Positions 28,137 through 39,052 are shown, numbered from the stretch's first letter. The stretch: 64,000 nucleotides of DNA from Giesbergeria sp. (GCA_026647025.1 JAPKHH010000004.1:12743-76742), one strand, 5' to 3'. A program made the numbers and translations. Notes: a model not told the origin generated them from the letters alone.

Positions 28137-29147
28137 TCACAACGCAGGCGACAGCCGGGGGGAACGCACCAGAACGGGAATACCCAGCAGCACCGCCAGC
28201 AGCAGCGCCGCTGCCATGTTGTGGGCGAGAGCCGCCGCCAGTGGCAGGCCCAGCGTGACCAGTGCCACCCCCAGCCCGATCTGCGCTGCCAGCAAAGCCA
28301 AAAGCAAGAGTGCGGCAACGCGCAGCCCACCGCGCCAGGCGAAAGCGGCCAGCGGCAGCAGGACGGCCACCACCACCAGTCCGCCGACGCGGTGCAGTAC
28401 ATGCACCCACGCGCCGGCCGGGTGGTTCGGCAGCGCGGCGTTGGTCTGAGGCTCCGCCCAGGGATTGAAGGCGTCCCAGGAGCCAGCGCTCAGGTCGCAG
28501 CCCGTCAGTCCGGTGCAGCTCAGGCCGGCCTGTCCCGCGCTGACCAGCCCACCCAGCGCCACCTGCGCCAGCAAGAGCGCGGCGCCCAGCCAGGCCCAGC
28601 GGGCCAGGCGCGGTGGTGGACCACCGGGGATGGAATCCAGGCGGCCGGTCAGCGCCATCCGCACGCTCACCGCGAACATGACAAAGCCCCCCAGCAGGTT
28701 GCCCAGGGTGACGGCGGGAATGCGGGCATGGGCCGTCCAGCGCCCGAGCACCGCCAGAAAAAGCGCCAGCCCGAGCAAGCCCAGGGCCAGCCGCCCCTGG
28801 GGCCACAACACCGGCCGGGACGCCACCGCCGCCATCACCATGACCAGCACCAGCAAAAGCGCCGACGAGGCGATCACCCGGTGCGCCAGCCGCGCACCGG
28901 CGGTAGCGGCATCGGCTTGCAGGGGCGGCTCGCCCTGCTGTTGAGCGCGCCACTGCTGCCCGTAGCACTGGGGCCAGGGCTCGCAGCCCAGGCCTGCCTT
29001 GGACAGGCGGATATAGGCGCTCAGGCTGGTGATGGCCAGCACCAGCACGGCGCAGATCCAGGCCATGCGCCGCAGCAAAAGCACCCGCCGCTGGACCGGG
29101 TCCGCCGGAGAGGAAAGAAGAGAGGGAGGCATGGCAGGGAGGTTCAT
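28137..29147 (-). CDS. ctaA: Divergent heme A synthase (COX15/CtaA family)
   Basis: GLGCEPWPQC, AHR, GLSCTGLTGC, VLHR, AHN; ~8 TM; divergent from the oxidase operon. Confidence 0.78.
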   Translation of the reverse strand: MNLPAMPPSLLSSPADPVQRRVLLLRRMAWICAVLVLAITSLSAYIRLSKAGLGCEPWPQCYGQQWRAQQQGEPPLQADAATAGARLAHRVIASSALLLVLVMVMAAVASRPVLWPQGRLALGLLGLALFLAVLGRWTAHARIPAVTLGNLLGGFVMFAVSVRMALTGRLDSIPGGPPPRLARWAWLGAALLLAQVALGGLVSAGQAGLSCTGLTGCDLSAGSWDAFNPWAEPQTNAALPNHPAGAWVHVLHRVGGLVVVAVLLPLAAFAWRGGLRVAALLLLALLAAQIGLGVALVTLGLPLAAALAHNMAAALLLAVLLGIPVLVRSPRLSPAL

Positions 29148-29299: not shown

Positions 29300-29313
29300 T
29301 TGATCGAAATCAT
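29300..29313. promoter_or_regulatory. FNR/DNR/NnrR-type binding site
   Basis: TTGAT-CGAA-ATCAT, 9/10 match to TTGAT-N4-ATCAA, 68 bp (centre) upstream of the ATG at 29375. Confidence 0.65.
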
Positions 29314-29374: not shown

Positions 29375-29530
29375 ATGAGCCAGCACGACGACGAGAACGA
29401 AAAAGTTCCGCTTATGCAGCAGTTATTGGACAACCCGTTCCTCCTGCTGTTTTTGGGGGTGATGATTCCCATGATCGTATATTCGCTCTGGGGCGTTATC
29501 GACATTCTGACCATTCCGGTGGCGAAATAA
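29375..29530 (+). CDS. 51-aa single-TM protein, probable small subunit of the heme-copper enzyme
   Basis: SD AAGGAG; MSQHDDENEKVPLMQQLLDNPFLLLFLGVMIPMIVYSLWGVIDILTIPVAK; below the ORF-track cutoff. Confidence 0.8.
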   Translation: MSQHDDENEKVPLMQQLLDNPFLLLFLGVMIPMIVYSLWGVIDILTIPVAK

Positions 29531-29542
29531 GGGGTAACGCAC

Positions 29543-30082
29543 ATGAGCGCCATTCTTCCCCCCTCAGAGCGGTTGTGGTGGAAACACCCGCTGGACCGTC
29601 TCGAAGCCGTCTGGATTGTCATCGCCTTCATCTGGTGCATGGTCATGTTCTTCATGATGGTTTTCTGGCATGTCTACGGCAAGCAGAACCTTGCGACCGA
29701 GACCTACAAGACCACACCCGACAAGTTCACCGCCGCCACCCAGGCCATGGTGGACAAGTACACCGTCCGCACGGAAACCGACCAGAACATTCCGGTGGTG
29801 CGTCCGCCCGAGGGCAGCGACATCTACCTGATTGGCCGCCTGTGGAACTGGTGGCCGATTCTGGAACTGGAAAAAAACAAATCCTACAAGTTGCACCTGA
29901 CCTCGATGGACTACAACCACGGTTTCTCGCTTCAGCCCACCAACATCAACATCCAGGTGGTGCCAGGATATGAGCACGTGATCAAGGTCACGCCCAACGA
30001 GTCCGGCACTTTTTCCATCATCTGCAACGAATTTTGCGGAATCAACCACCACACCATGGTGGGCCGCATGTACGTGAAGTAG
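29543..30082 (+). CDS. Heme-copper oxidase subunit II (B-family type, one TM, CuA)
   Basis: DYNHGF and CNEFCGINHHTM CuA ligands; WNWWP. Confidence 0.92.
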   Translation: MSAILPPSERLWWKHPLDRLEAVWIVIAFIWCMVMFFMMVFWHVYGKQNLATETYKTTPDKFTAATQAMVDKYTVRTETDQNIPVVRPPEGSDIYLIGRLWNWWPILELEKNKSYKLHLTSMDYNHGFSLQPTNINIQVVPGYEHVIKVTPNESGTFSIICNEFCGINHHTMVGRMYVK

Positions 30083-30095
30083 CAGGAGCACCGAC

Positions 30096-31793
30096 ATGAC
30101 TGCAACCACTTACCGTACCTGCCCGCGCTCGGGCCTGCAATTCGAATCCCAGGCGGAAAAGCTGATGATCGCCAATGCCGTCGCCGCCGTCGTGGCGCTG
30201 CTGGTCGGCGGTCTCCTGGCCATTGGTGTCGTGCTGACCCGCTGGCCCGCCGTGCACTGGCTGGCGGCCGACACTTTCTACATGGTGCTCACGGCACACG
30301 GCATCGACATGCTGATCTTCTGGATCATCTTCTTCGAAGTCGCAGTGCTGTATTTCGCCTCGTCGACACTCTTGCGGTGCCGCATTGCCACACCCAAGAT
30401 CGCCTGGGCGGCCTTCGCACTGATGCTGATCGGCGCGGTGATGAACAACCTGACGGTGTTCCAGGGCGGCTCCAGCGTCATGATGACCTCGTACGTGCCC
30501 ATGATGGCGTCGTCGTGGTTCTACCTGGGCCTCATCCTGTTCGCCGTCGGCGCCCTGATTGCGTGTTTTGTGTTTTTCGGCACGCTGGTGGTCGCCAAGC
30601 GCGAAAAAACCTACGAAGGCTCGGTGCCCCTGGTGACGTTTGGCGCCATCACGGCCGCCATCATCGCGGTGTTCACCATTGCCTCCGGCGCGATCATCCT
30701 GATCCCCACCTACATGATGGCCATTGGCCTCATCAGTGAAGTCGATCCGTTGATCTACCGCACCATCTGGTGGGCTTTCGGGCACTCGTCGCAGCAAATC
30801 AACGTGGCAGCGCACATCTCGATCTGGTATGCCGTGGCGGCCATCGCCTTCGGTGCCAAGCCCATGTCCGAGCGCGTCAGCCGTGGCGCCTTCCTGCTGT
30901 ACATCCTGTTCCTGCAGCTTGCCAGTGCCCACCACCTGTTGGCCGACCCCGGCATCAGCACCGAGTGGAAAGTGGTGAACACCAGCTACTTCATGTACTT
31001 CGCCGTGCTGGCTTCGATGATCCATGCGCTGTCCATTCCGGGCGCCATGGAGGTGGCCCAGCGTGCCAAGGGCTACAACAAGGGCCTGTTTGAATGGCTG
31101 CGCAAGGCGCCCTGGGGCAACCCTGCTTTTTCGGGCGTGTTCATCTCGCTCGTGGGCTTCGGCTTCCTCGGTGGCATCTCCGGCGTGATGATGGGTACCG
31201 AACAGCTCAACCTGCTGATCCACAACACCATCTACGTGCCGGGCCACTTCCACGCCACCGTGGTGATTGGTACCACGCTGACCTTCATGGCCCTGACGTA
31301 CTTCCTGATTCCTGTGCTGTTCCGGCGCGAGATGATCTCGCCCGGTCTGGCCAAGATCCAGCCGTACCTCTTCGGCTTCTCGATGTACTTCTTCTGCCTG
31401 GTGATGATGGGCGCCGGTACGCTGGGCGTTTCCCGTCGGCACTGGGACATGGCCTTCAGTGGCGCGGCCCTGGCCTATGAATGGCCCGGCGCGGCGTATC
31501 TGATGATGGGTCTGGTCGGTATCGGGGGGATTGCCGCCATCGTGGGTGGCGGCATCTACATCTACGTCACGGTGGGCTCCATCTTGTGGGGCAAGAAGCT
31601 CGATACCGGCGTCGTGAGCCCCAAGTTCACCCCGGTGGGACGGGCTGCACCCACAGCCGCCGCACAGACCTATGGCTCTGCAGGGTTCGTGGCTCCTGGC
31701 ACCTTCGTGCTGGCCATGTTCTTCCTGGTGTCCTTCGTGCTGTACTACTTCATCAACTGGAAGTACCTGGGCCAGCTCTGGGGCCTGAGCTAA
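30096..31793 (+). CDS. Heme-copper superfamily subunit I with Tyr->Gln; probable eNOR-type nitric oxide reductase
   Basis: TAHG (helix II), GHSSQQIN (helix VI, H+4 = Q rather than Y), SAHHLL (helix VII), GHFHAT (helix X). Confidence 0.78.
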   Translation: MTATTYRTCPRSGLQFESQAEKLMIANAVAAVVALLVGGLLAIGVVLTRWPAVHWLAADTFYMVLTAHGIDMLIFWIIFFEVAVLYFASSTLLRCRIATPKIAWAAFALMLIGAVMNNLTVFQGGSSVMMTSYVPMMASSWFYLGLILFAVGALIACFVFFGTLVVAKREKTYEGSVPLVTFGAITAAIIAVFTIASGAIILIPTYMMAIGLISEVDPLIYRTIWWAFGHSSQQINVAAHISIWYAVAAIAFGAKPMSERVSRGAFLLYILFLQLASAHHLLADPGISTEWKVVNTSYFMYFAVLASMIHALSIPGAMEVAQRAKGYNKGLFEWLRKAPWGNPAFSGVFISLVGFGFLGGISGVMMGTEQLNLLIHNTIYVPGHFHATVVIGTTLTFMALTYFLIPVLFRREMISPGLAKIQPYLFGFSMYFFCLVMMGAGTLGVSRRHWDMAFSGAALAYEWPGAAYLMMGLVGIGGIAAIVGGGIYIYVTVGSILWGKKLDTGVVSPKFTPVGRAAPTAAAQTYGSAGFVAPGTFVLAMFFLVSFVLYYFINWKYLGQLWGLS

Positions 31794-31808: not shown

Positions 31809-32708
31809 ATGCACACCACCACGATCCATCCCGCCGGGCGCAGTGCGGCACAGTGGACGCGCGACGTCATCTCGCTGTTCAAGCTGCGCATCGGTGTGCT
31901 GATCATGATTACGGCGCTCGTGGGCATGGCGGTCTCGCCAGGCCCGGCGCCCAGTCTGGTGCAGGTGCTCGTGCTTGCGCTGTCGGTGCTGATCGCGTCC
32001 GCCAGCGCAGGTGCGTTCAACCAGTATGTCGAGCACGAGAGCGATCGCCTGATGGCACGCACGCGCAAGCGGGCCTTTGCCACCGGGGCGCTGCCCCACC
32101 ATCCCGCCTGGCTGGCCCTGATGGCCGTGCTGCTGGCGGGGGCGGTGGCATCGGCCTGGCTGGTGCTCAACGCAGCGGCTGCGCTGTATGTGTTTCTGGG
32201 CGCCTTTTTCTACGGAGTGGTCTACACCCTGTGGCTCAAGCGGCGCACGGCGCTCAACATCGTGATCGGGGGGTTGGCAGGCAGCTTTGCCGTGCTGGCC
32301 GGGGCTGCCGCCATTGACCCGACTCTGGGCCCACTGCCCGTGCTGCTGGCCTTGGTGTTGTTCCTGTGGACGCCACCGCATTTCTGGAGCCTGGCAATCG
32401 CCAACAAGGCCGACTATGCGCAGGCGGGCGTGCCCATGCTGCCGGTCGTCGTGGGCACCGAGCGCGCTGCGCACATCGTTCTGGGCAGCACGGTGGCATT
32501 GTTCGTGGCTTCGCTGCTGCCGCTGGGATTTGGCGCCGGCCCGGTGTACGCCGTGGGCGCCCTGGTGGGGGGGCTGCACTTTGTGCACAAGTCGTGGCTT
32601 CTGGTAGCCCAGCCCAGCCGCGCCACCGCCATGGGTTCGTTCTTCGCTTCGCTGATCCAGCTCAGTTTGTTGCTGGTGGCGGCGTGCATCGACGCTTTCA
32701 TGCGCTAG
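31809..32708 (+). CDS. ctaB: Protoheme IX farnesyltransferase (heme O synthase)
   Basis: LFKLRI, FNQYVEHESDRLMARTRKR, YTLWLKRRT, FLWTPPHFWSL. Confidence 0.93.
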   Translation: MHTTTIHPAGRSAAQWTRDVISLFKLRIGVLIMITALVGMAVSPGPAPSLVQVLVLALSVLIASASAGAFNQYVEHESDRLMARTRKRAFATGALPHHPAWLALMAVLLAGAVASAWLVLNAAAALYVFLGAFFYGVVYTLWLKRRTALNIVIGGLAGSFAVLAGAAAIDPTLGPLPVLLALVLFLWTPPHFWSLAIANKADYAQAGVPMLPVVVGTERAAHIVLGSTVALFVASLLPLGFGAGPVYAVGALVGGLHFVHKSWLLVAQPSRATAMGSFFASLIQLSLLLVAACIDAFMR

Positions 32709-32728: not shown

Positions 32729-33586
32729 ATGCACGCCACAGAACGTATTTCAGCACTGTCTGGGGCCGTGCTGTGTCTGTTCCTTGTTCTGTTGGCGCCA
32801 GCTGTCGTGCAGGCCTCGTCCCACGGGTCTGATCTGGGGTTGGACCGGGAGCAGGCACTGCGCACCAGCCAAGCTGCGTTGGGCCGCAAGATCGCTGACC
32901 ATACCCTGCTGGACCGTGAAGGTCGACCGGTCCGGCTTTCTTCCTACCGGGGCAAACCGCTGCTGGTCAGTTTCATCTACACCGGGTGCTTCCAGGTGTG
33001 CCCGACCACCACGCGGTCGTTGCAGGAAACGGTCGAGGGCTTGCAAAAGACCTTTGGCACCAACCAGTTCAACGTGGTGAGCATCGGTTTCAACCAGCCC
33101 GATGATTCGCCCCAGGCGCTCAAGGCGTTTGCCGCCCAATACCGCATCCATCAGCCCAGCTGGGAATTCTTGAGCCCCTCCATGGCTACCGTGGGGCCGC
33201 TGGCCCGTGATTTTGGGTTTGTCTACGAAGCCACTCCGGCGGGCTTCGACCATGTGCTGCAGGTGTCGCTGGTCGATGCGCAGGGGCGCATCGTGCGGCA
33301 GGTCTACGGGGAGAGCATTCGACCGGGCGATATCGGCGAACCCCTGAAACTGCTGCTCAACGGCACGCCGGTTGAGCCTTCCCTGGCGTTGGAAAGTCTG
33401 ATGGACCGTGTGCGCATCCTGTGCACGGTGTACGACCCCAAGACGGGCCAGTACCGGGTGGACTACACCCTGCCTATCCAGATTGCTGGGGGCATCACCT
33501 TTCTGATCGCCATGCTGGTGTTCTTTCTCAACGAGTGGCGCTCTGTACGGCGCAGTGCCCGCAACAAGGAGGCGCGCCGCGCCTGA
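32729..33586 (+). CDS. SCO-family copper chaperone with C-terminal TM extension
   Basis: FIYTGCFQVCP (CxxxC), FDH; signal peptide; C-terminal TM. Confidence 0.88.
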   Translation: MHATERISALSGAVLCLFLVLLAPAVVQASSHGSDLGLDREQALRTSQAALGRKIADHTLLDREGRPVRLSSYRGKPLLVSFIYTGCFQVCPTTTRSLQETVEGLQKTFGTNQFNVVSIGFNQPDDSPQALKAFAAQYRIHQPSWEFLSPSMATVGPLARDFGFVYEATPAGFDHVLQVSLVDAQGRIVRQVYGESIRPGDIGEPLKLLLNGTPVEPSLALESLMDRVRILCTVYDPKTGQYRVDYTLPIQIAGGITFLIAMLVFFLNEWRSVRRSARNKEARRA

Positions 33587-33601: not shown

Positions 33602-35188
33602 ATGCCCTTGCCTGGTTCAGCCTTTGTTTCCAAAGGATCTCCTGTTTCGCTGACGCTTCCGCCGGTTCCCCGCAGTGCGGCCCTCTACCGGGCCGTGGAA
33701 CATTCCTTTGACGTACCGTTCGGGGCGGCGCTGAACCCGCTCAAACATCTGGGGGCCCTCGGTTTCCTGTTTTTCTGGCTGCTGGTCGTCACGGGGGTGG
33801 TGCTCTACATCGTGCTCGACACCTCGGTCGGGGGCGCGTACCAATCCATCAACGATCTGGCCCAGGTGCCCTGGATGCTGGGCGTCATGCTGCGCGGCGT
33901 GCACCGCTACGCCGCCGATGGCTTTGTGATCGTCATGTTCGCCCATCTCCTGCGGGAATGGATGCTGGGCCGGTTCAAGGGTTTTCGCCGTGTTCCCTGG
34001 CTGACAGGTGTGCCCCTGGTTGCCCTGGCCTTTGTCAGTGCGATTGGAGGCTTCTGGCTCAACTGGGACCGCCTGGGCCAGTTTTCGGCTGTGTCCACGG
34101 CCGAGTGGCTCGATACCTTGCCGTTCCTGGCGTCGCCCCTGGCGCGCAATTTTCTGGGCGGCGTCAGTCTGAATGCGCGGCTGTTCACCCTGTTCGTTTT
34201 CGTGCATCTGGGTGTGCCGCTGCTGATGGTGTTTGCCCTGTGGTTTCATATCCAGCGCATCAGCCTCGCACGGGTTTTTCCGCCGCGTGCCTTGGCCTGG
34301 GGCACGCTGGCCATGCTGCTGTTGCTTTCACTGGTCCTTCCGGTGCGCAGCCAGGGGCCGGCCGACCTGATGTCGGTGCCCGTTTCCTTGTCACTGGACT
34401 GGTTCTTGTTGTTCATCCACCCCTTGATCGACGCTACTTCGGCGCAAGCGGTGTGGGCGCTCGTGGCCATGGTTTTCGCCGGATTGATACTGTTGCCGTT
34501 CACCCCCGTGCGCGCCGAACCCGTGGCCGTGGTGAACCCCGACCATTGCAGCGGCTGCAGCCGCTGTTTTGCCGACTGTCCCTATTCCGCCATTACGATG
34601 GTGCCCCACCCCAACGGGCGGCGGGGCATGCAACTGGCCGAAGTGCGTGCCGACCTGTGCGCCAGCTGTGGCATCTGTGTCGGCTCCTGCCCGTCTTCCA
34701 CGCCGTTTCGCAGTACCGAGGTACTGCACACCGGCATCGACATGCCGCAGTGGCCCATCGACGACTTGCGCGCCCGTTTGTTGCAGGGCCTGGCTGCCAT
34801 GCCGGGGCCGCGCAGGCTGGTGGTTTTTGGCTGCGATCAGGGCCAGCGCAGCCGCATGGGCGCGCCGGATGTCCTGCATCTGGGCATGGTGTGTGCAGGC
34901 ATGCTGCCGCCTTCCTTTGTCGAGTACGCATTGCGCGGAGGTGCCGACGGCGTGCTCATCAACGGCTGCCGCGAGGGGGGCTGTGAATTCCGCCTGGGCC
35001 AACGCTGGACACAGCAGCGCCTGAACGGTGAGCGCGAGCCGCATCTGCGCACCTCCGTGCCGGCCGAACGCTGGCGTGTCGTCTGGACCGACCCGGGCGA
35101 TGAAAGCCAGCTGGTATCCGCCCTTGAAGACATGCGCACGCATTGCGCACCCGGCGCACCTCACCCATTTTTGGAGAACACCCCATGA
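33602..35188 (+). CDS. Cytochrome b / 2x[4Fe-4S] ferredoxin / MvhD-FlpD-like [2Fe-2S] fusion protein
   Basis: GVHRYAADGFVIVMFAH and FVHLG...WFH (four heme b His); LDWF; CSGCSRCFADCP; CASCGICVGSCP; FGC...CAGM...GCREGGCEF. Start codon uncertain. Confidence 0.85.
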   Translation: MPLPGSAFVSKGSPVSLTLPPVPRSAALYRAVEHSFDVPFGAALNPLKHLGALGFLFFWLLVVTGVVLYIVLDTSVGGAYQSINDLAQVPWMLGVMLRGVHRYAADGFVIVMFAHLLREWMLGRFKGFRRVPWLTGVPLVALAFVSAIGGFWLNWDRLGQFSAVSTAEWLDTLPFLASPLARNFLGGVSLNARLFTLFVFVHLGVPLLMVFALWFHIQRISLARVFPPRALAWGTLAMLLLLSLVLPVRSQGPADLMSVPVSLSLDWFLLFIHPLIDATSAQAVWALVAMVFAGLILLPFTPVRAEPVAVVNPDHCSGCSRCFADCPYSAITMVPHPNGRRGMQLAEVRADLCASCGICVGSCPSSTPFRSTEVLHTGIDMPQWPIDDLRARLLQGLAAMPGPRRLVVFGCDQGQRSRMGAPDVLHLGMVCAGMLPPSFVEYALRGGADGVLINGCREGGCEFRLGQRWTQQRLNGEREPHLRTSVPAERWRVVWTDPGDESQLVSALEDMRTHCAPGAPHPFLENTP

Positions 35189-35688
35189 ACCGAGCCCTCA
35201 ACTGGACAGGGCAAGCCCTGCTCTATGGCAGTTTTGCCCTGGTAGTCGGCGTCTTCTCGCGCTGGCCCAGCTACCATCCTCTGGCGCCGAACGAGGCGCA
35301 GATCAAGGTCAGCTTCATTCACCATGGTGCGCGGATTGCCGAATGCCGCCCCTACACGGCCGAGGAACTGTCCAAACTGGCGCCGAACATGCGCGCGCCC
35401 ATGAAATGCGAACGAGAGCGCTCGCCGGTGCGCATCGAGGTCGAGGTCGATGGCGTGTCCGTCTATGCCCACACGGCCACGCCCTCGGGCTTCTCGCGCG
35501 ACGGTGCCTCCACGGTGTACCAGCGACTCAATGTTCCCTCGGGTGAACATCGCATCACTGTGCGCATGAAAGACAACATGAAGTCGCCCGACTTCCCGTA
35601 TGTGCACGACTCCACCGTCACACTGCAACCCGCGCAGGTCATGGTGATCGACTTCAACCCGGACAAAGGGGAGATCGTTCTGCTATGA
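35185..35688 (+). CDS. Hypothetical membrane-anchored protein with a probable periplasmic beta domain and a Cys pair
   Basis: ATGA-coupled to both neighbours; one N-terminal TM; ECRPY...MKCERERSP. Confidence 0.78.
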   Translation: MNRALNWTGQALLYGSFALVVGVFSRWPSYHPLAPNEAQIKVSFIHHGARIAECRPYTAEELSKLAPNMRAPMKCERERSPVRIEVEVDGVSVYAHTATPSGFSRDGASTVYQRLNVPSGEHRITVRMKDNMKSPDFPYVHDSTVTLQPAQVMVIDFNPDKGEIVLL

Positions 35689-37136
35689 GTGCACTGCCCT
35701 CTCACATGCTTGGCGTGCATGCCGCCGCAGGCCGCCCGTTGCCCGCAGCGATGCCGGGGCTGGACTATGAGCTCACGGTGCCGCAGGACGCCCGGCAGGC
35801 CCTGGCGCGTGGATGGCTCTGGCTGGGTCTTTTGGCGCTGGTGGGTTCGGGACTGTTTTCCATCCTGCTGGTGCTCTCGCGCACGCCGTACGTCAACCAG
35901 TGGTTGCCTGCGGCCAATTTTTTCCAGGTCTCGCTGGTGCTGCATGTCGATTTGTCGGTGCTGGTGTGGTTCGTGGCCCAAGGGGGCATGCTCTGGAGCA
36001 TTCACGGCACCCGGCGCGGCACGCACTGGGGCTGGCTGGCGCTGGCGGTGGCCGCAGTCGGCACATTGGCCATGGCCTTGGCGCCGTTTCTGAACCGGGG
36101 CGATCCCGTCATGGCCAACTACATCCCGGTGCTGGATTCGCCGCTGTTTCTGGGCGGCCTGGTCGTGTTCGGCGCGGGCACGGCTCTGCTGGTACTGCGC
36201 AGCCTGCTGGTCGCGCCCCGGCTGGGACTGGAGTACGACGGCCGCGGTGCGCTGGATTTTGGTCTGAGCAGCGCAGCCATTGCCACGGCCGTCGGTCTGC
36301 TGGCCTTTGCATGGTCCTATGCCGTGCTGCCGACCGCGCTGCATGGCAAGGCCTACTACGAAATCCTGTTCTGGGGCGGTGGCCACGCCTTGCAGTTCAC
36401 CTGGACCTTGCTCATGCTGGTGGGCTGGCTCTGGCTGGCCAGCGCCTGTGGTGCGCGCGTGCCCCTGAGCCCGCGCGTGGTGGTGCTCATGTTCGCGCTG
36501 GCCCTGGTGGGCGTCTTCATCACGCCCTATGCCTACCTGGCGCATGACATCACCTCGGTGGAGCACCGCAATCTGCTGACCTGGGCCATGCGGGCCGGTG
36601 GTGGACCGGCCATCGTGCCGGTGGGCCTGGCCGTGGTCTATGCCATCGCCACCACGCGGCTGGACAGCGACACCCTGCGCCCGCTGCGTGCCGCGCTGCT
36701 GGCATCGGTGCTGTTGTTTGCCGCTGGCGGGGTGATCGGCATCTTTATCCAGGGGAGCAATGTGCGCATTCCCGCGCACTACCATGGCTGCATTGTCGGG
36801 GTCACGCTGGCGCTCATGGGCGTGGTCTACAAGACCTTGCCGGCGCTGGGCTACCGTGCGCCCCAGGGGCGCCTGGCCACCTACCAGCCCTGGCTGTACG
36901 GTGCGGGTCAACTCATGCACATCATCGGGCTGGTCTGGTCGGGTGGCTACGGTGTGCAGCGCAAGGTGGCCGGTGCCGAGCAGGTGCTGCGCAGCACGGC
37001 CGAGGTGGCCGGCATGGGCCTGATGGGCCTGGGCGGGCTGATCGCCATCATCGGCGGACTGCTGTTCGTGGTGGTGGTGGTCCAGGCCATGCGACATACG
37101 CCCGCTGCGGCGGGCTCCAACGGGACGACACGATGA
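35685..37136 (+). CDS. Heme-copper subunit I paralogue lacking the helix VII His-His (CuB/FeB) pair
   Basis: LHVD (helix II), FWGGGHALQF (helix VI), PAHYHG (helix X); ~12 TM; no HH dipeptide in the protein. Confidence 0.75.
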   Translation: MSALPSHMLGVHAAAGRPLPAAMPGLDYELTVPQDARQALARGWLWLGLLALVGSGLFSILLVLSRTPYVNQWLPAANFFQVSLVLHVDLSVLVWFVAQGGMLWSIHGTRRGTHWGWLALAVAAVGTLAMALAPFLNRGDPVMANYIPVLDSPLFLGGLVVFGAGTALLVLRSLLVAPRLGLEYDGRGALDFGLSSAAIATAVGLLAFAWSYAVLPTALHGKAYYEILFWGGGHALQFTWTLLMLVGWLWLASACGARVPLSPRVVVLMFALALVGVFITPYAYLAHDITSVEHRNLLTWAMRAGGGPAIVPVGLAVVYAIATTRLDSDTLRPLRAALLASVLLFAAGGVIGIFIQGSNVRIPAHYHGCIVGVTLALMGVVYKTLPALGYRAPQGRLATYQPWLYGAGQLMHIIGLVWSGGYGVQRKVAGAEQVLRSTAEVAGMGLMGLGGLIAIIGGLLFVVVVVQAMRHTPAAAGSNGTTR

Positions 37137-39052
37137 TCAAACGATTCCAGGCCCTGCTGCAGTGGGTTTTCTTGCGTGTCGAGGGCTTGTTCAATGCGGC
37201 CTTTGGCGACCGCATCAATCCTTTCTACCACCTGGGGGCCATCACCTTCTTCCTGTTCTGGGTGGTTGGCGCCAGTGGCCTGTACCTGTACATCTTTTTC
37301 GAAACCGGTCTGTCTGTTGCGTATTCCTCGGTGGTGGCACTGACCGAAAACCAGTGGTTCGCTGGCGGCATCATGCGCAGCGTGCACCGCTACGCGTCCG
37401 ACGCCATGGTGCTGACCATGGTGCTGCACATGCTGCGCTACTTTGCCTTCAATCTGTACCACGGCTTTCGCTGGTTCTCATGGATCACCGGGGTGATGCT
37501 GATCTGGATGGTGTATGCCACAGGGATCAACGGCTACATGCTGCCCTGGGACCAACTGGCGCAGTTCGTCACCGTGACCAGTTTCGAGTGGCTTGACTGG
37601 CTGCCCAGTTTTGGCGGCACCTTGATGCGCAACTTCATCTACTCCTCGGCCGTGGGCGATCGCTTCTTCACCCTGCTGTCGTTCATGCACCTGGGCCTGC
37701 CCCTGGTGGTGCTGATGGTGATGTGGATCCACGTGCAGCGCGTTCCCAAGGCACGCACCACGCCGCCGCGTCCCATCGTCATCGGCCTGCTGCTGACCAT
37801 GCTGGTGCTGTCACTGGTCCTGCCGGTGCACAGCCAGGGGGGTATTAGCAACCTGGCACAGGCCGTGACGAATGTCGAACTCGACTGGTTCTACCTGGCC
37901 ATCTTCCCACTGCTGACCGAATGGCCGCTGGGCCGGGTCTGGGCGCTGGTGGTGGGCGGCTCGCTGGTGCTGGCGCTGCTGCCCTGGTGGCCCCCGCGCT
38001 TTCGCCGGGGAGCACACACCAGCCACCAGGTGGTGGTGCGCGGCGTGGATGGCGCGAGCGCGGAATTCAGCGTGCGCGAGGACGAAACCATTCTGGATGC
38101 CGGTCTGCGCGAAGGCCTGGCCTTGCCGTATGAATGCCGCAATGGGGGGTGCGGCCTGTGTCTGTGCAGCGTGGAGCACGGCAACATCGACCACCGGCCC
38201 TACCAGCGCAGTGCGTTGCCCGATGCGCAGAAGGCCCAGGGCAAGGCGCTGATGTGCTGCGCTGTGCCGCGTGGCGACGTCGTGATCGACGTGGAGGGTT
38301 TTACCGGTGCCGCCGCCCAGGCCGCCGAGGTGCACACTGCCACCGTGGCGCAACTGGAACGCCTGGCTGACGATGTCATGCGTGTGCTGCTGCAACTGCC
38401 CGAGGGCAAGACGCTGGACTTTGCTGCAGGCCAGTACATCGACATCCTGCTGGACGACGGCCAGCGCCGTGCGTTCTCGTTTGCCAACCGGCCCCATGCC
38501 AGCAGCCAGATCGAGCTGCACATTCGCCTCGTGCCCGGCGGGCGCTTTACGACCCATGTGTTCGAGGCGATGCGGGTGGGCGACGTCCTGCGTTTCGAAG
38601 GCCCGCGCGGCAGCTTCACGCTGCGCGAAAGCACGCACCCCATTTTGTTCGTGGCCGGTGCCACCGGTTTTGCACCGATCAAGAGCATTGTGGAAGATGC
38701 CTTCGAGCGGGGCGTGCAGCGCCCCATGCGCCTGTACTGGGGTGTGCGCCAGCGCAAGGACCTGTACCTGCTGGCGCTGTGCGAGCAATGGGCGCGGGAC
38801 CACACCAACTTCACCGTGGTGCCGGTCGTGTCAGAGCCCGCCGAGGGCGACGGCTGGACGGGCCGCACGGGACTGGTGCACGAGGCCATGCTGGCCGACT
38901 TTCCTGATCTCAGCGGCAACGAGGTTTACCTGTGCGGCTCTGTGAAGATGGTGGAAACTGCCGTCCCGGCCTTCATTGCCCAGGGCCTGGGTGAGGATGC
39001 CTGCTTCTCGGACGCATTCCTGATGGCAGCGCCAGCACAGACACAACAGTAG
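37133..39052 (+). CDS. Cytochrome b / [2Fe-2S] ferredoxin / FAD-NAD(P) reductase fusion protein
   Basis: SVHRYASDAMVLTMVLH; FMHLG...WIH; ELDWFY; CRNGGCGLC...C; RAFSFAN; GGRFT; AGATGFAP; YLCGS. Confidence 0.88.
   Translation: MIKRFQALLQWVFLRVEGLFNAAFGDRINPFYHLGAITFFLFWVVGASGLYLYIFFETGLSVAYSSVVALTENQWFAGGIMRSVHRYASDAMVLTMVLHMLRYFAFNLYHGFRWFSWITGVMLIWMVYATGINGYMLPWDQLAQFVTVTSFEWLDWLPSFGGTLMRNFIYSSAVGDRFFTLLSFMHLGLPLVVLMVMWIHVQRVPKARTTPPRPIVIGLLLTMLVLSLVLPVHSQGGISNLAQAVTNVELDWFYLAIFPLLTEWPLGRVWALVVGGSLVLALLPWWPPRFRRGAHTSHQVVVRGVDGASAEFSVREDETILDAGLREGLALPYECRNGGCGLCLCSVEHGNIDHRPYQRSALPDAQKAQGKALMCCAVPRGDVVIDVEGFTGAAAQAAEVHTATVAQLERLADDVMRVLLQLPEGKTLDFAAGQYIDILLDDGQRRAFSFANRPHASSQIELHIRLVPGGRFTTHVFEAMRVGDVLRFEGPRGSFTLRESTHPILFVAGATGFAPIKSIVEDAFERGVQRPMRLYWGVRQRKDLYLLALCEQWARDHTNFTVVPVVSEPAEGDGWTGRTGLVHEAMLADFPDLSGNEVYLCGSVKMVETAVPAFIAQGLGEDACFSDAFLMAAPAQTQQ

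Follow-up and report, generated by a model that had tools for sequence, protein, structure and literature searches.

In a 64,000-nucleotide stretch of DNA from Giesbergeria sp. (JAPKHH010000004.1:12743-76742; hereafter the window), two adjoining genes carry the database label cytochrome c oxidase, and the question raised by this locus is whether the encoded enzyme reduces oxygen or, as an initial annotation of the DNA had proposed, nitric oxide (NO). Judging from sequence, the gene pair very probably encodes a nitric oxide reductase (NOR) of the eNOR family, descended from the B-type (ba3-like) oxygen reductases. The enzyme is an ordinary, well-conserved new member of this family, which has already been described, as has the problem of its misannotation. 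The window lies on one contig (C156) of a 3.7-Mb genome, and the closest named proteins (99% identical) are from unclassified Simplicispira (Comamonadaceae).

Subunit I carries the helix VI motif WWAFGHSSQQINV within the stretch WWAFGH230-S-S-Q233-Q234-INV (codon of H230 at 30783, codon of Q234 at 30795), and its gene adjoins the gene of a CuA-type subunit II. The initial annotation had placed Gln four residues after the helix VI His, at the position of the Tyr that is cross-linked in O2 reductases, and this reading was borne out by two independent alignments. Aligned pairwise with Thermus ba3 (1EHK/4GP8) by HMMER, GHSSQQ stands without gaps opposite GHPIVY in the stretch WWFGH233-P-I-V-Y237-FW, and when 50 heme-copper sequences were aligned with MAFFT and positions were indexed to ba3, Q234 again occupied the position of Tyr237. 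The window residues in the latter alignment are, in ba3 numbering, H72, H233, Q236, Q237, H282, H283, H384, and H386. The complete set of metal ligands that had been claimed for the pair was likewise recovered by alignment to ba3, with six His ligands in subunit I (H68, H230, H279, H280, H384, and H386) and all CuA ligands in subunit II (H126, C161, C165, H169, and M172; comparison with the Thermus ba3 CuA domain, E 5e-15). Neither subunit scored above the cut-off of any NCBIfam equivalog.

Homologous open reading frames (ORFs, n = 224, 196 unique) with ~42-100% identity to the window derive from at least 10 phyla and include members of the Burkholderiales, Lysobacterales, Myxococcota, Planctomycetota, Verrucomicrobiota, Spirochaetota, Rhodothermota, Balneolota, Calditrichota, Acidobacteriota, and others. 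Because the two consecutive Gln are present in all 224 ORFs, the GHxxQQ motif is under selection and not a chance feature. Polar residues analogous to those of the ba3 K-channel are also retained. S307 (the equivalent of ba3 S309), Y245, and H310 are each conserved in at least 97% of the 196 unique sequences, S258 lies opposite ba3 S261 in Burkholderiales-type sequences only, and E21 of subunit II matches the Glu15 motif of ba3 subunit II in an alignment made by eye (YEKGW / YEKLW / LEAVW). A pseudogene was ruled out, as every ORF is intact and highly conserved.

Subunit I is collinear with Thermus thermophilus ba3 (1EHK) over residues 29-492 (E 1e-42), and matches to ba3 at E 1e-43 establish its fold. 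The two enzymes share the His ligands, the CuA subunit II, an arrangement with a one-helix small subunit, and the K-channel-analogue positions Y248, S261, and S309 (ba3 numbering). They differ in that ba3 Tyr237 and Val236 are both replaced by Gln, Tyr244 by Ile, and Thr312 by His, and in that the window enzyme belongs to a separate, well-supported clade. Gln at the position of the cross-linked Tyr is diagnostic of eNOR, while Asn is found there in sNOR and bNOR/CuANOR (Schwartz et al. 2022, PMC8756737 Table A4, after Hemp & Gennis 2008), in agreement with what the initial annotation had stated on Tyr replacement and on Gln in eNOR. Four NOR families derived from the B-family have been described, all with CuA-type subunits and without the Tyr (Murali et al. 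2024, PMC11214002).

Other family identities were considered and rejected. sNOR and bNOR (qCuANOR) resemble the window enzyme in being related to the B-family, bearing CuA, and lacking the Tyr (PMC11214002, PMC8756737), but the diagnostic Asn is replaced by Gln in the window, which ruled out this identity. In addition, K-channel-like polar residues including the S309 equivalent are kept in eNOR, as in the window, whereas the S309 equivalent is not kept in sNOR (PMC11214002). The canonical cNOR subunit NorB, of which the genome encodes its own copy (contig C201), belongs to the same superfamily and has the same proposed reaction, but is related to the C-family, has the helix VI Glu of the motif HLWVEG, and is partnered by a cytochrome c instead of CuA. 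A cNOR or qNOR identity was rejected as subunit I has no HLWVEG Glu and a CuA subunit is present. An ordinary ba3-type B-family O2 reductase was rejected as well; GHSSQQ stands in place of GHPxVY with its cross-linked Tyr, and the alternative Tyr position of the C-family, six residues ahead of the helix VII His pair, is Leu273.

In a maximum likelihood tree of 53 sequences (IQ-TREE, LG+C20+F+G4), all 28 Gln-bearing sequences formed one clade with a support of 100/100, which includes the window, the eNOR of Rhodothermus marinus (R. marinus), and a haloarchaeal member. The 12 Tyr-bearing B-family oxidases, among them Thermus ba3 and Aquifex 7DEG, grouped apart from this clade, and the aa3, cbb3, and cNOR subunits of the genome itself were distant outgroups. 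The shared clade with R. marinus eNOR supports the proposal of a nitric oxide reductase in place of an oxidase, and clustering with O2-reducing B-family enzymes, which the initial annotation had named as the outcome that would contradict it, did not occur.

The enzyme of R. marinus DSM 4252 has been purified; it contains a modified heme A and reduces NO but, with several electron donors, not O2 (PMC11214002). Its sequence was obtained by searching 201 Rhodothermales genomes, and the position of the gene at 174-176 kb fits the locus tag Rmar_0161. R. marinus subunit I (570 amino acids, aa), which reads YWIIGHGSQQINL, is 42% identical to the window subunit I over the full length (E 3e-145, 419 bits, as compared to ~150 bits for ba3), and subunit II is 37% identical, both being 179-aa CuA proteins. 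Besides their common clade, the two enzymes have in common the motif GH-x-S-Q-Q-IN, the six His ligands, a Glu in helix II, and a subunit I of ~570 aa. They belong to different subclades, and the measured activity is that of the R. marinus enzyme only.

In an exhaustive search of representatives at 50% identity, the nearest full-length relatives were two GHxxQQ proteins, one 52% identical and the other, from the haloarchaeon Natrarchaeobius, 40% identical, followed by a Tyr-retaining GH-x-x-Q-Y group, an FH-x-x-H-Y group, and then the ordinary GHPxVY B-family oxidases. The GH-x-x-Q-Y group (P0130, P0134, P0136, P0151) comprises members of the Hodarchaeales (Asgard) and Thermoproteota, which retain the cross-linked Tyr and have the preceding Gln and the helix II Glu in common with eNOR; this group could represent the oxygen-reducing ancestor form of eNOR. 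The FH-x-x-H-Y group (P0173, P0184, P0213, P0257) has an odd ligand set, in which Tyr replaces both a CuB ligand (ba3 H282) and the proximal high-spin heme ligand (ba3 H384), and matches none of the families described in the eNOR and heme-copper literature that we examined.

It is highly improbable that the enzyme is an oxygen reductase after all, that is, a B-family variant that works without the His-Tyr cofactor or with another tyrosine. Such a function would be in line with the descent from O2 reductases and the Tyr-bearing nearest outgroup, with the oxidase-like set of CuA, SCO1, and heme A genes, and with an FNR-type control of the operon, which would also suit a high-affinity oxidase. 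Against this stand the lack of the helix VI Tyr from all 224 homologues and of a substitute at the C-family position, the inability of R. marinus eNOR to reduce O2, and the aa3 and cbb3 oxidases that the genome already encodes elsewhere. As an observation on this oxidase complement, contig C203 (8206-9909, minus strand) bears a gene for a third C-family-like subunit I (WWYGHNVLG) with an N-terminal CcoS/FixS-like extension, besides the ordinary cbb3 CcoN on contig C57.

For the eNOR assignment, we infer the activity, metal, heme type, proton uptake, and regulation of the window enzyme from its sequence and gene context. A periplasmic donor, probably a c-type cytochrome, would reduce CuA at the five subunit II ligands named above, and electrons would pass from CuA to a low-spin heme (H68, H386) and on to a binuclear site, in which H384 would ligate a high-spin heme and H230, H279, and H280 a non-heme metal. 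There, two NO would be reduced to nitrous oxide (2 NO + 2 e- + 2 H+ -> N2O + H2O). With Gln234 in place of the redox-active His-Tyr cofactor, the fourth electron for O2 reduction would be unavailable, so that two-electron NO reduction would be possible and four-electron O2 reduction would not. Because the K-channel-like residues are conserved (E21 of subunit II, S258, Y245, S307, and H310), protons would probably be taken from the cytoplasm, and the reaction would be electrogenic and energy-conserving, as proposed for the eNOR family. A-type (As) hemes in both heme sites are characteristic of eNOR, and the ctaA, ctaB, and SCO1 genes of the cluster may supply an A-type heme and copper. Heme A synthesis requires O2. 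Because of this requirement and of an FNR/Dnr-type box upstream of the operon, the enzyme would be expected to work under microoxic denitrifying conditions, at low but non-zero O2, alongside cNOR.

The genes around the catalytic pair (Table 1) were compared over 80 related, Burkholderiales-type loci, the other subclade being that of Myxococcota/Rhodothermales. By tblastn, an ORF for a 51-aa protein lies directly upstream of subunit II in 79 of the 80 loci and, within the Myxococcota/Rhodothermales subclade, in a further 141, and because it is conserved across both subclades, its product is probably an unannotated third (small) subunit of eNOR; tblastn did not find it at the R. marinus locus. 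The heme O synthase gene ctaB was kept in 71/80 loci and SCO1, which probably serves CuA assembly, in 74/80, while ctaA was present in 34/80. ctaA has been found in many eNOR operons (PMC11214002). The aa3 operon of the genome (contig C145) has its own ctaA and ctaB; the copies in the cluster are a second set in the genome and are therefore dedicated to the eNOR cluster.

Table 1. Positions in the window of the eNOR gene pair, its helix VI codons, and the surrounding genes and putative regulatory site
Feature	Coordinates	Strand	Characteristics
ctaA-like heme A synthase, divergent from the eNOR genes	28137..29147	-	PF02628, E 1e-34
Putative FNR/Dnr/NnrR-type box, TTGATCGAAATCAT	29300..29313	+	centred 68 nt upstream of the 51-aa ORF
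One-helix protein, candidate small (ba3 IIa-like) subunit	29375..29530	+	51 aa; AAGGAG ribosome-binding site, ATG start
eNOR subunit II	29543..30082	+	179 aa; single membrane helix and CuA cupredoxin (COX2) domain; PF00116
eNOR subunit I, catalytic heme-copper-type subunit	30096..31793	+	565 aa; COX1 family; PF00115, E 3e-62
Helix VI codons H230-S-S-Q233-Q234	30783..30797	+	Gln234 in place of the cross-linked Tyr
ctaB heme O synthase	31809..32708	+	TIGR01473, 260.6 bits, over cut-off
SCO1/SenC copper chaperone	32729..33586	+	PF02630, E 2e-14
Cytochrome b-2x[4Fe-4S]-FlpD (FlpD/MvhD-like) fusion	33602-35188	+	Pfam domains
Membrane-anchored protein	35185-35688	+	167 aa
Subunit-I paralogue without helix VII His pair	35685-37136	+	COX1 family
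Cytochrome b-[2Fe-2S]-FAD-NAD(P) reductase fusion	37133-39052	+	Pfam domains

Four accessory genes downstream of SCO1 (33602..39052), encoding two cytochrome b fusions, a membrane-anchored protein, and a subunit-I paralogue, are co-conserved with eNOR in 60-68 of the 80 loci. The paralogue, which accompanies eNOR in 60/80 loci, keeps the heme His ligands (the helix II His, GGGH, and HYH), while its helix VII pair is gone (YLAHD; YLITD in the relative P0248). Two locus types can be told apart by where the cytochrome b fusions stand with respect to the paralogue. A corresponding operon has been described from Ferrigenium straubiae KS and consists of eNOR II, eNOR I, heme o synthase, sco1, an 'eNOR scaffold protein', which is the counterpart of the paralogue, a cytochrome b-FeS-FAD-NADH fusion, and a cytochrome b-FeS fusion; its catalytic genes were long annotated coxA/coxB, and its eNOR transcripts were the most abundant among heme-copper transcripts during denitrifying Fe(II) oxidation (bioRxiv 10.64898/2026.01.22.701106). 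The window operon has the same gene set and gene order and suffered the same misannotation as an oxidase, a likeness drawn from the published description. It differs in that the window cluster has its own ctaA and the genome a cNOR, whereas F. straubiae is reported to be without another NOR.

The conserved accessory genes raise the question of whether the catalytic pair functions only when assembled with the paralogue and both cytochrome b fusions into a larger, uncharacterised complex. Such a complex would link the reduction of NO to NAD(P)H/NAD(P)+ or quinol, and the enzyme would not be a simple cytochrome c:NO oxidoreductase. The co-conservation would fit such a complex, and a quinol:NAD+ oxidoreductase supercomplex has been proposed in F. 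straubiae, with its proteins detected in the proteome (bioRxiv 10.64898/2026.01.22.701106). We consider it unlikely, given that the isolated R. marinus enzyme is active, that none of the ctaA, ctaB, SCO1, cytochrome b fusion, or paralogue genes of the window cluster adjoins the R. marinus genes, and that CuA implies a periplasmic donor. It is equally doubtful whether, in Burkholderiales and relatives as a whole, eNOR is the last module in a membrane system not described so far, which would also contain both cytochrome b fusions, the paralogue without a metal site, and the 51-aa subunit and would couple the reduction of NO to NAD(P)H/NAD(P)+ or quinol chemistry.

Copies of the eNOR operon from Comamonadaceae, Alcaligenaceae, Rhodocyclaceae, and Lysobacterales share 82-94% identity, yet the operon is patchy in its occurrence (12% of family genomes), and the G+C content of the window region (0.62-0.64) is slightly below that of its flanks. 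The patchy presence, the high identity across taxa, and the lower G+C content point to horizontal spread of the operon.

We next consider the role that an eNOR-type nitric oxide reductase would have in this genome and its relatives. The genome carries nirS with nirF/N-like genes, clade I nosZ, and the canonical cNOR NorB (HLWVEG), nirK was not found in it, and the organism is predicted from its genes to be a full, Simplicispira-like denitrifier. Since a cNOR is present, eNOR would be a second NO reductase here and not a missing one. The expectation of the initial annotation that the oxidase label would conceal a denitrification step thus does not apply to this genome, in which only the second NO reductase is overlooked, but it does apply in full to five relatives with nirS in which eNOR is the only heme-copper NOR.

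Within the same taxonomic family, the eNOR gene was found in 24 of 197 high-quality genomes (19 of 166 genera) with 72-93% identity. The NOR inventory, made for 23 of these relatives, was based on PF00115 (COX1), since known qNORs (e.g., that of S. lacusdiani) had escaped a search with NorB protein at E 1e-25, which was therefore not used for absence. A cNOR or qNOR accompanies eNOR in at least 13 of the 23, no other candidate was present in five, and five are ambiguous. nirS was present in all eight relatives tested, including the five with eNOR as the only heme-copper NOR, and often lies on the same contig a few kb from eNOR. Over the wider set of loci, nirS is located no more than 10 kb to either side of eNOR in 10/80 of the Burkholderiales type and in 12/145 of the other subclade. 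We estimate that this linkage exceeds the expectation for a single-copy gene by more than an order of magnitude, and the context in relatives points to denitrification.

In 58 of 79 Burkholderiales-type loci (73%), the 200 nt upstream contain a motif TTGA-N6-TCAA (≤1 mismatch), as compared to 6.9% of control windows, which is a roughly tenfold enrichment, and the putative box of the window (Table 1) would place the operon under FNR/Dnr/NnrR-type control.

The coexistence of two NO reductases leaves a distinct, if minority, possibility that the enzyme is a true eNOR with a role other than respiratory denitrification, such as NO detoxification or standby at the oxic-anoxic boundary, with cNOR carrying the main flux. 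Such a division of labour would agree with the cNOR, nirS, and nosZ genes elsewhere in the genome, with the additional cNOR or qNOR of more than half of the eNOR-bearing relatives, and with the O2 dependence of heme A synthesis. Furthermore, eNOR carriers have been described as aerobic denitrifiers (PMC11214002), and detoxification was also raised by the authors of the F. straubiae study (bioRxiv 10.64898/2026.01.22.701106). It is less easily reconciled with the five nirS-bearing relatives that have no other heme-copper NOR and with the frequent linkage of nirS and eNOR, and the conserved channel residues suggest energy conservation over mere detoxification.

Several points weigh against the assignment of the window enzyme as a nitric oxide reductase of denitrification. 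Its function is predicted here from genes, and its identity to the sole characterised eNOR, that of R. marinus, is just 42%. The turnover of the latter, 0.68 NO per second at 25 C (PMC11214002), is slow and may leave room for another preferred substrate. The branching order among the three eNOR subclades is weakly supported (48/17). The tree contains neither the named eNORs of Accumulibacter or Ferrigenium nor references for sNOR/bNOR; the former were not among the best 80 matches of a scan seeded with a Rhodocyclaceae sequence, and the link to these published enzymes therefore rests on operon architecture and literature. In the window genome, the denitrification pathway is complete without eNOR, and nirS is not near the eNOR cluster. 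Finally, FNR-type control is equally typical for high-affinity oxidases.

As pipelines label eNOR as cytochrome c oxidase, genome-based inventories of the capacity to produce N2O undercount NO reductases. For at least five genomes of the family, which have nirS but neither cNOR nor qNOR, such inventories would record the NO-reduction step as absent. The gain is smaller for the present genome, to which eNOR would add a second NO reductase, probably one that tolerates O2 and conserves energy. Such a second NO reductase could affect the release of NO and N2O where oxic and anoxic zones meet, as they do in wastewater treatment.

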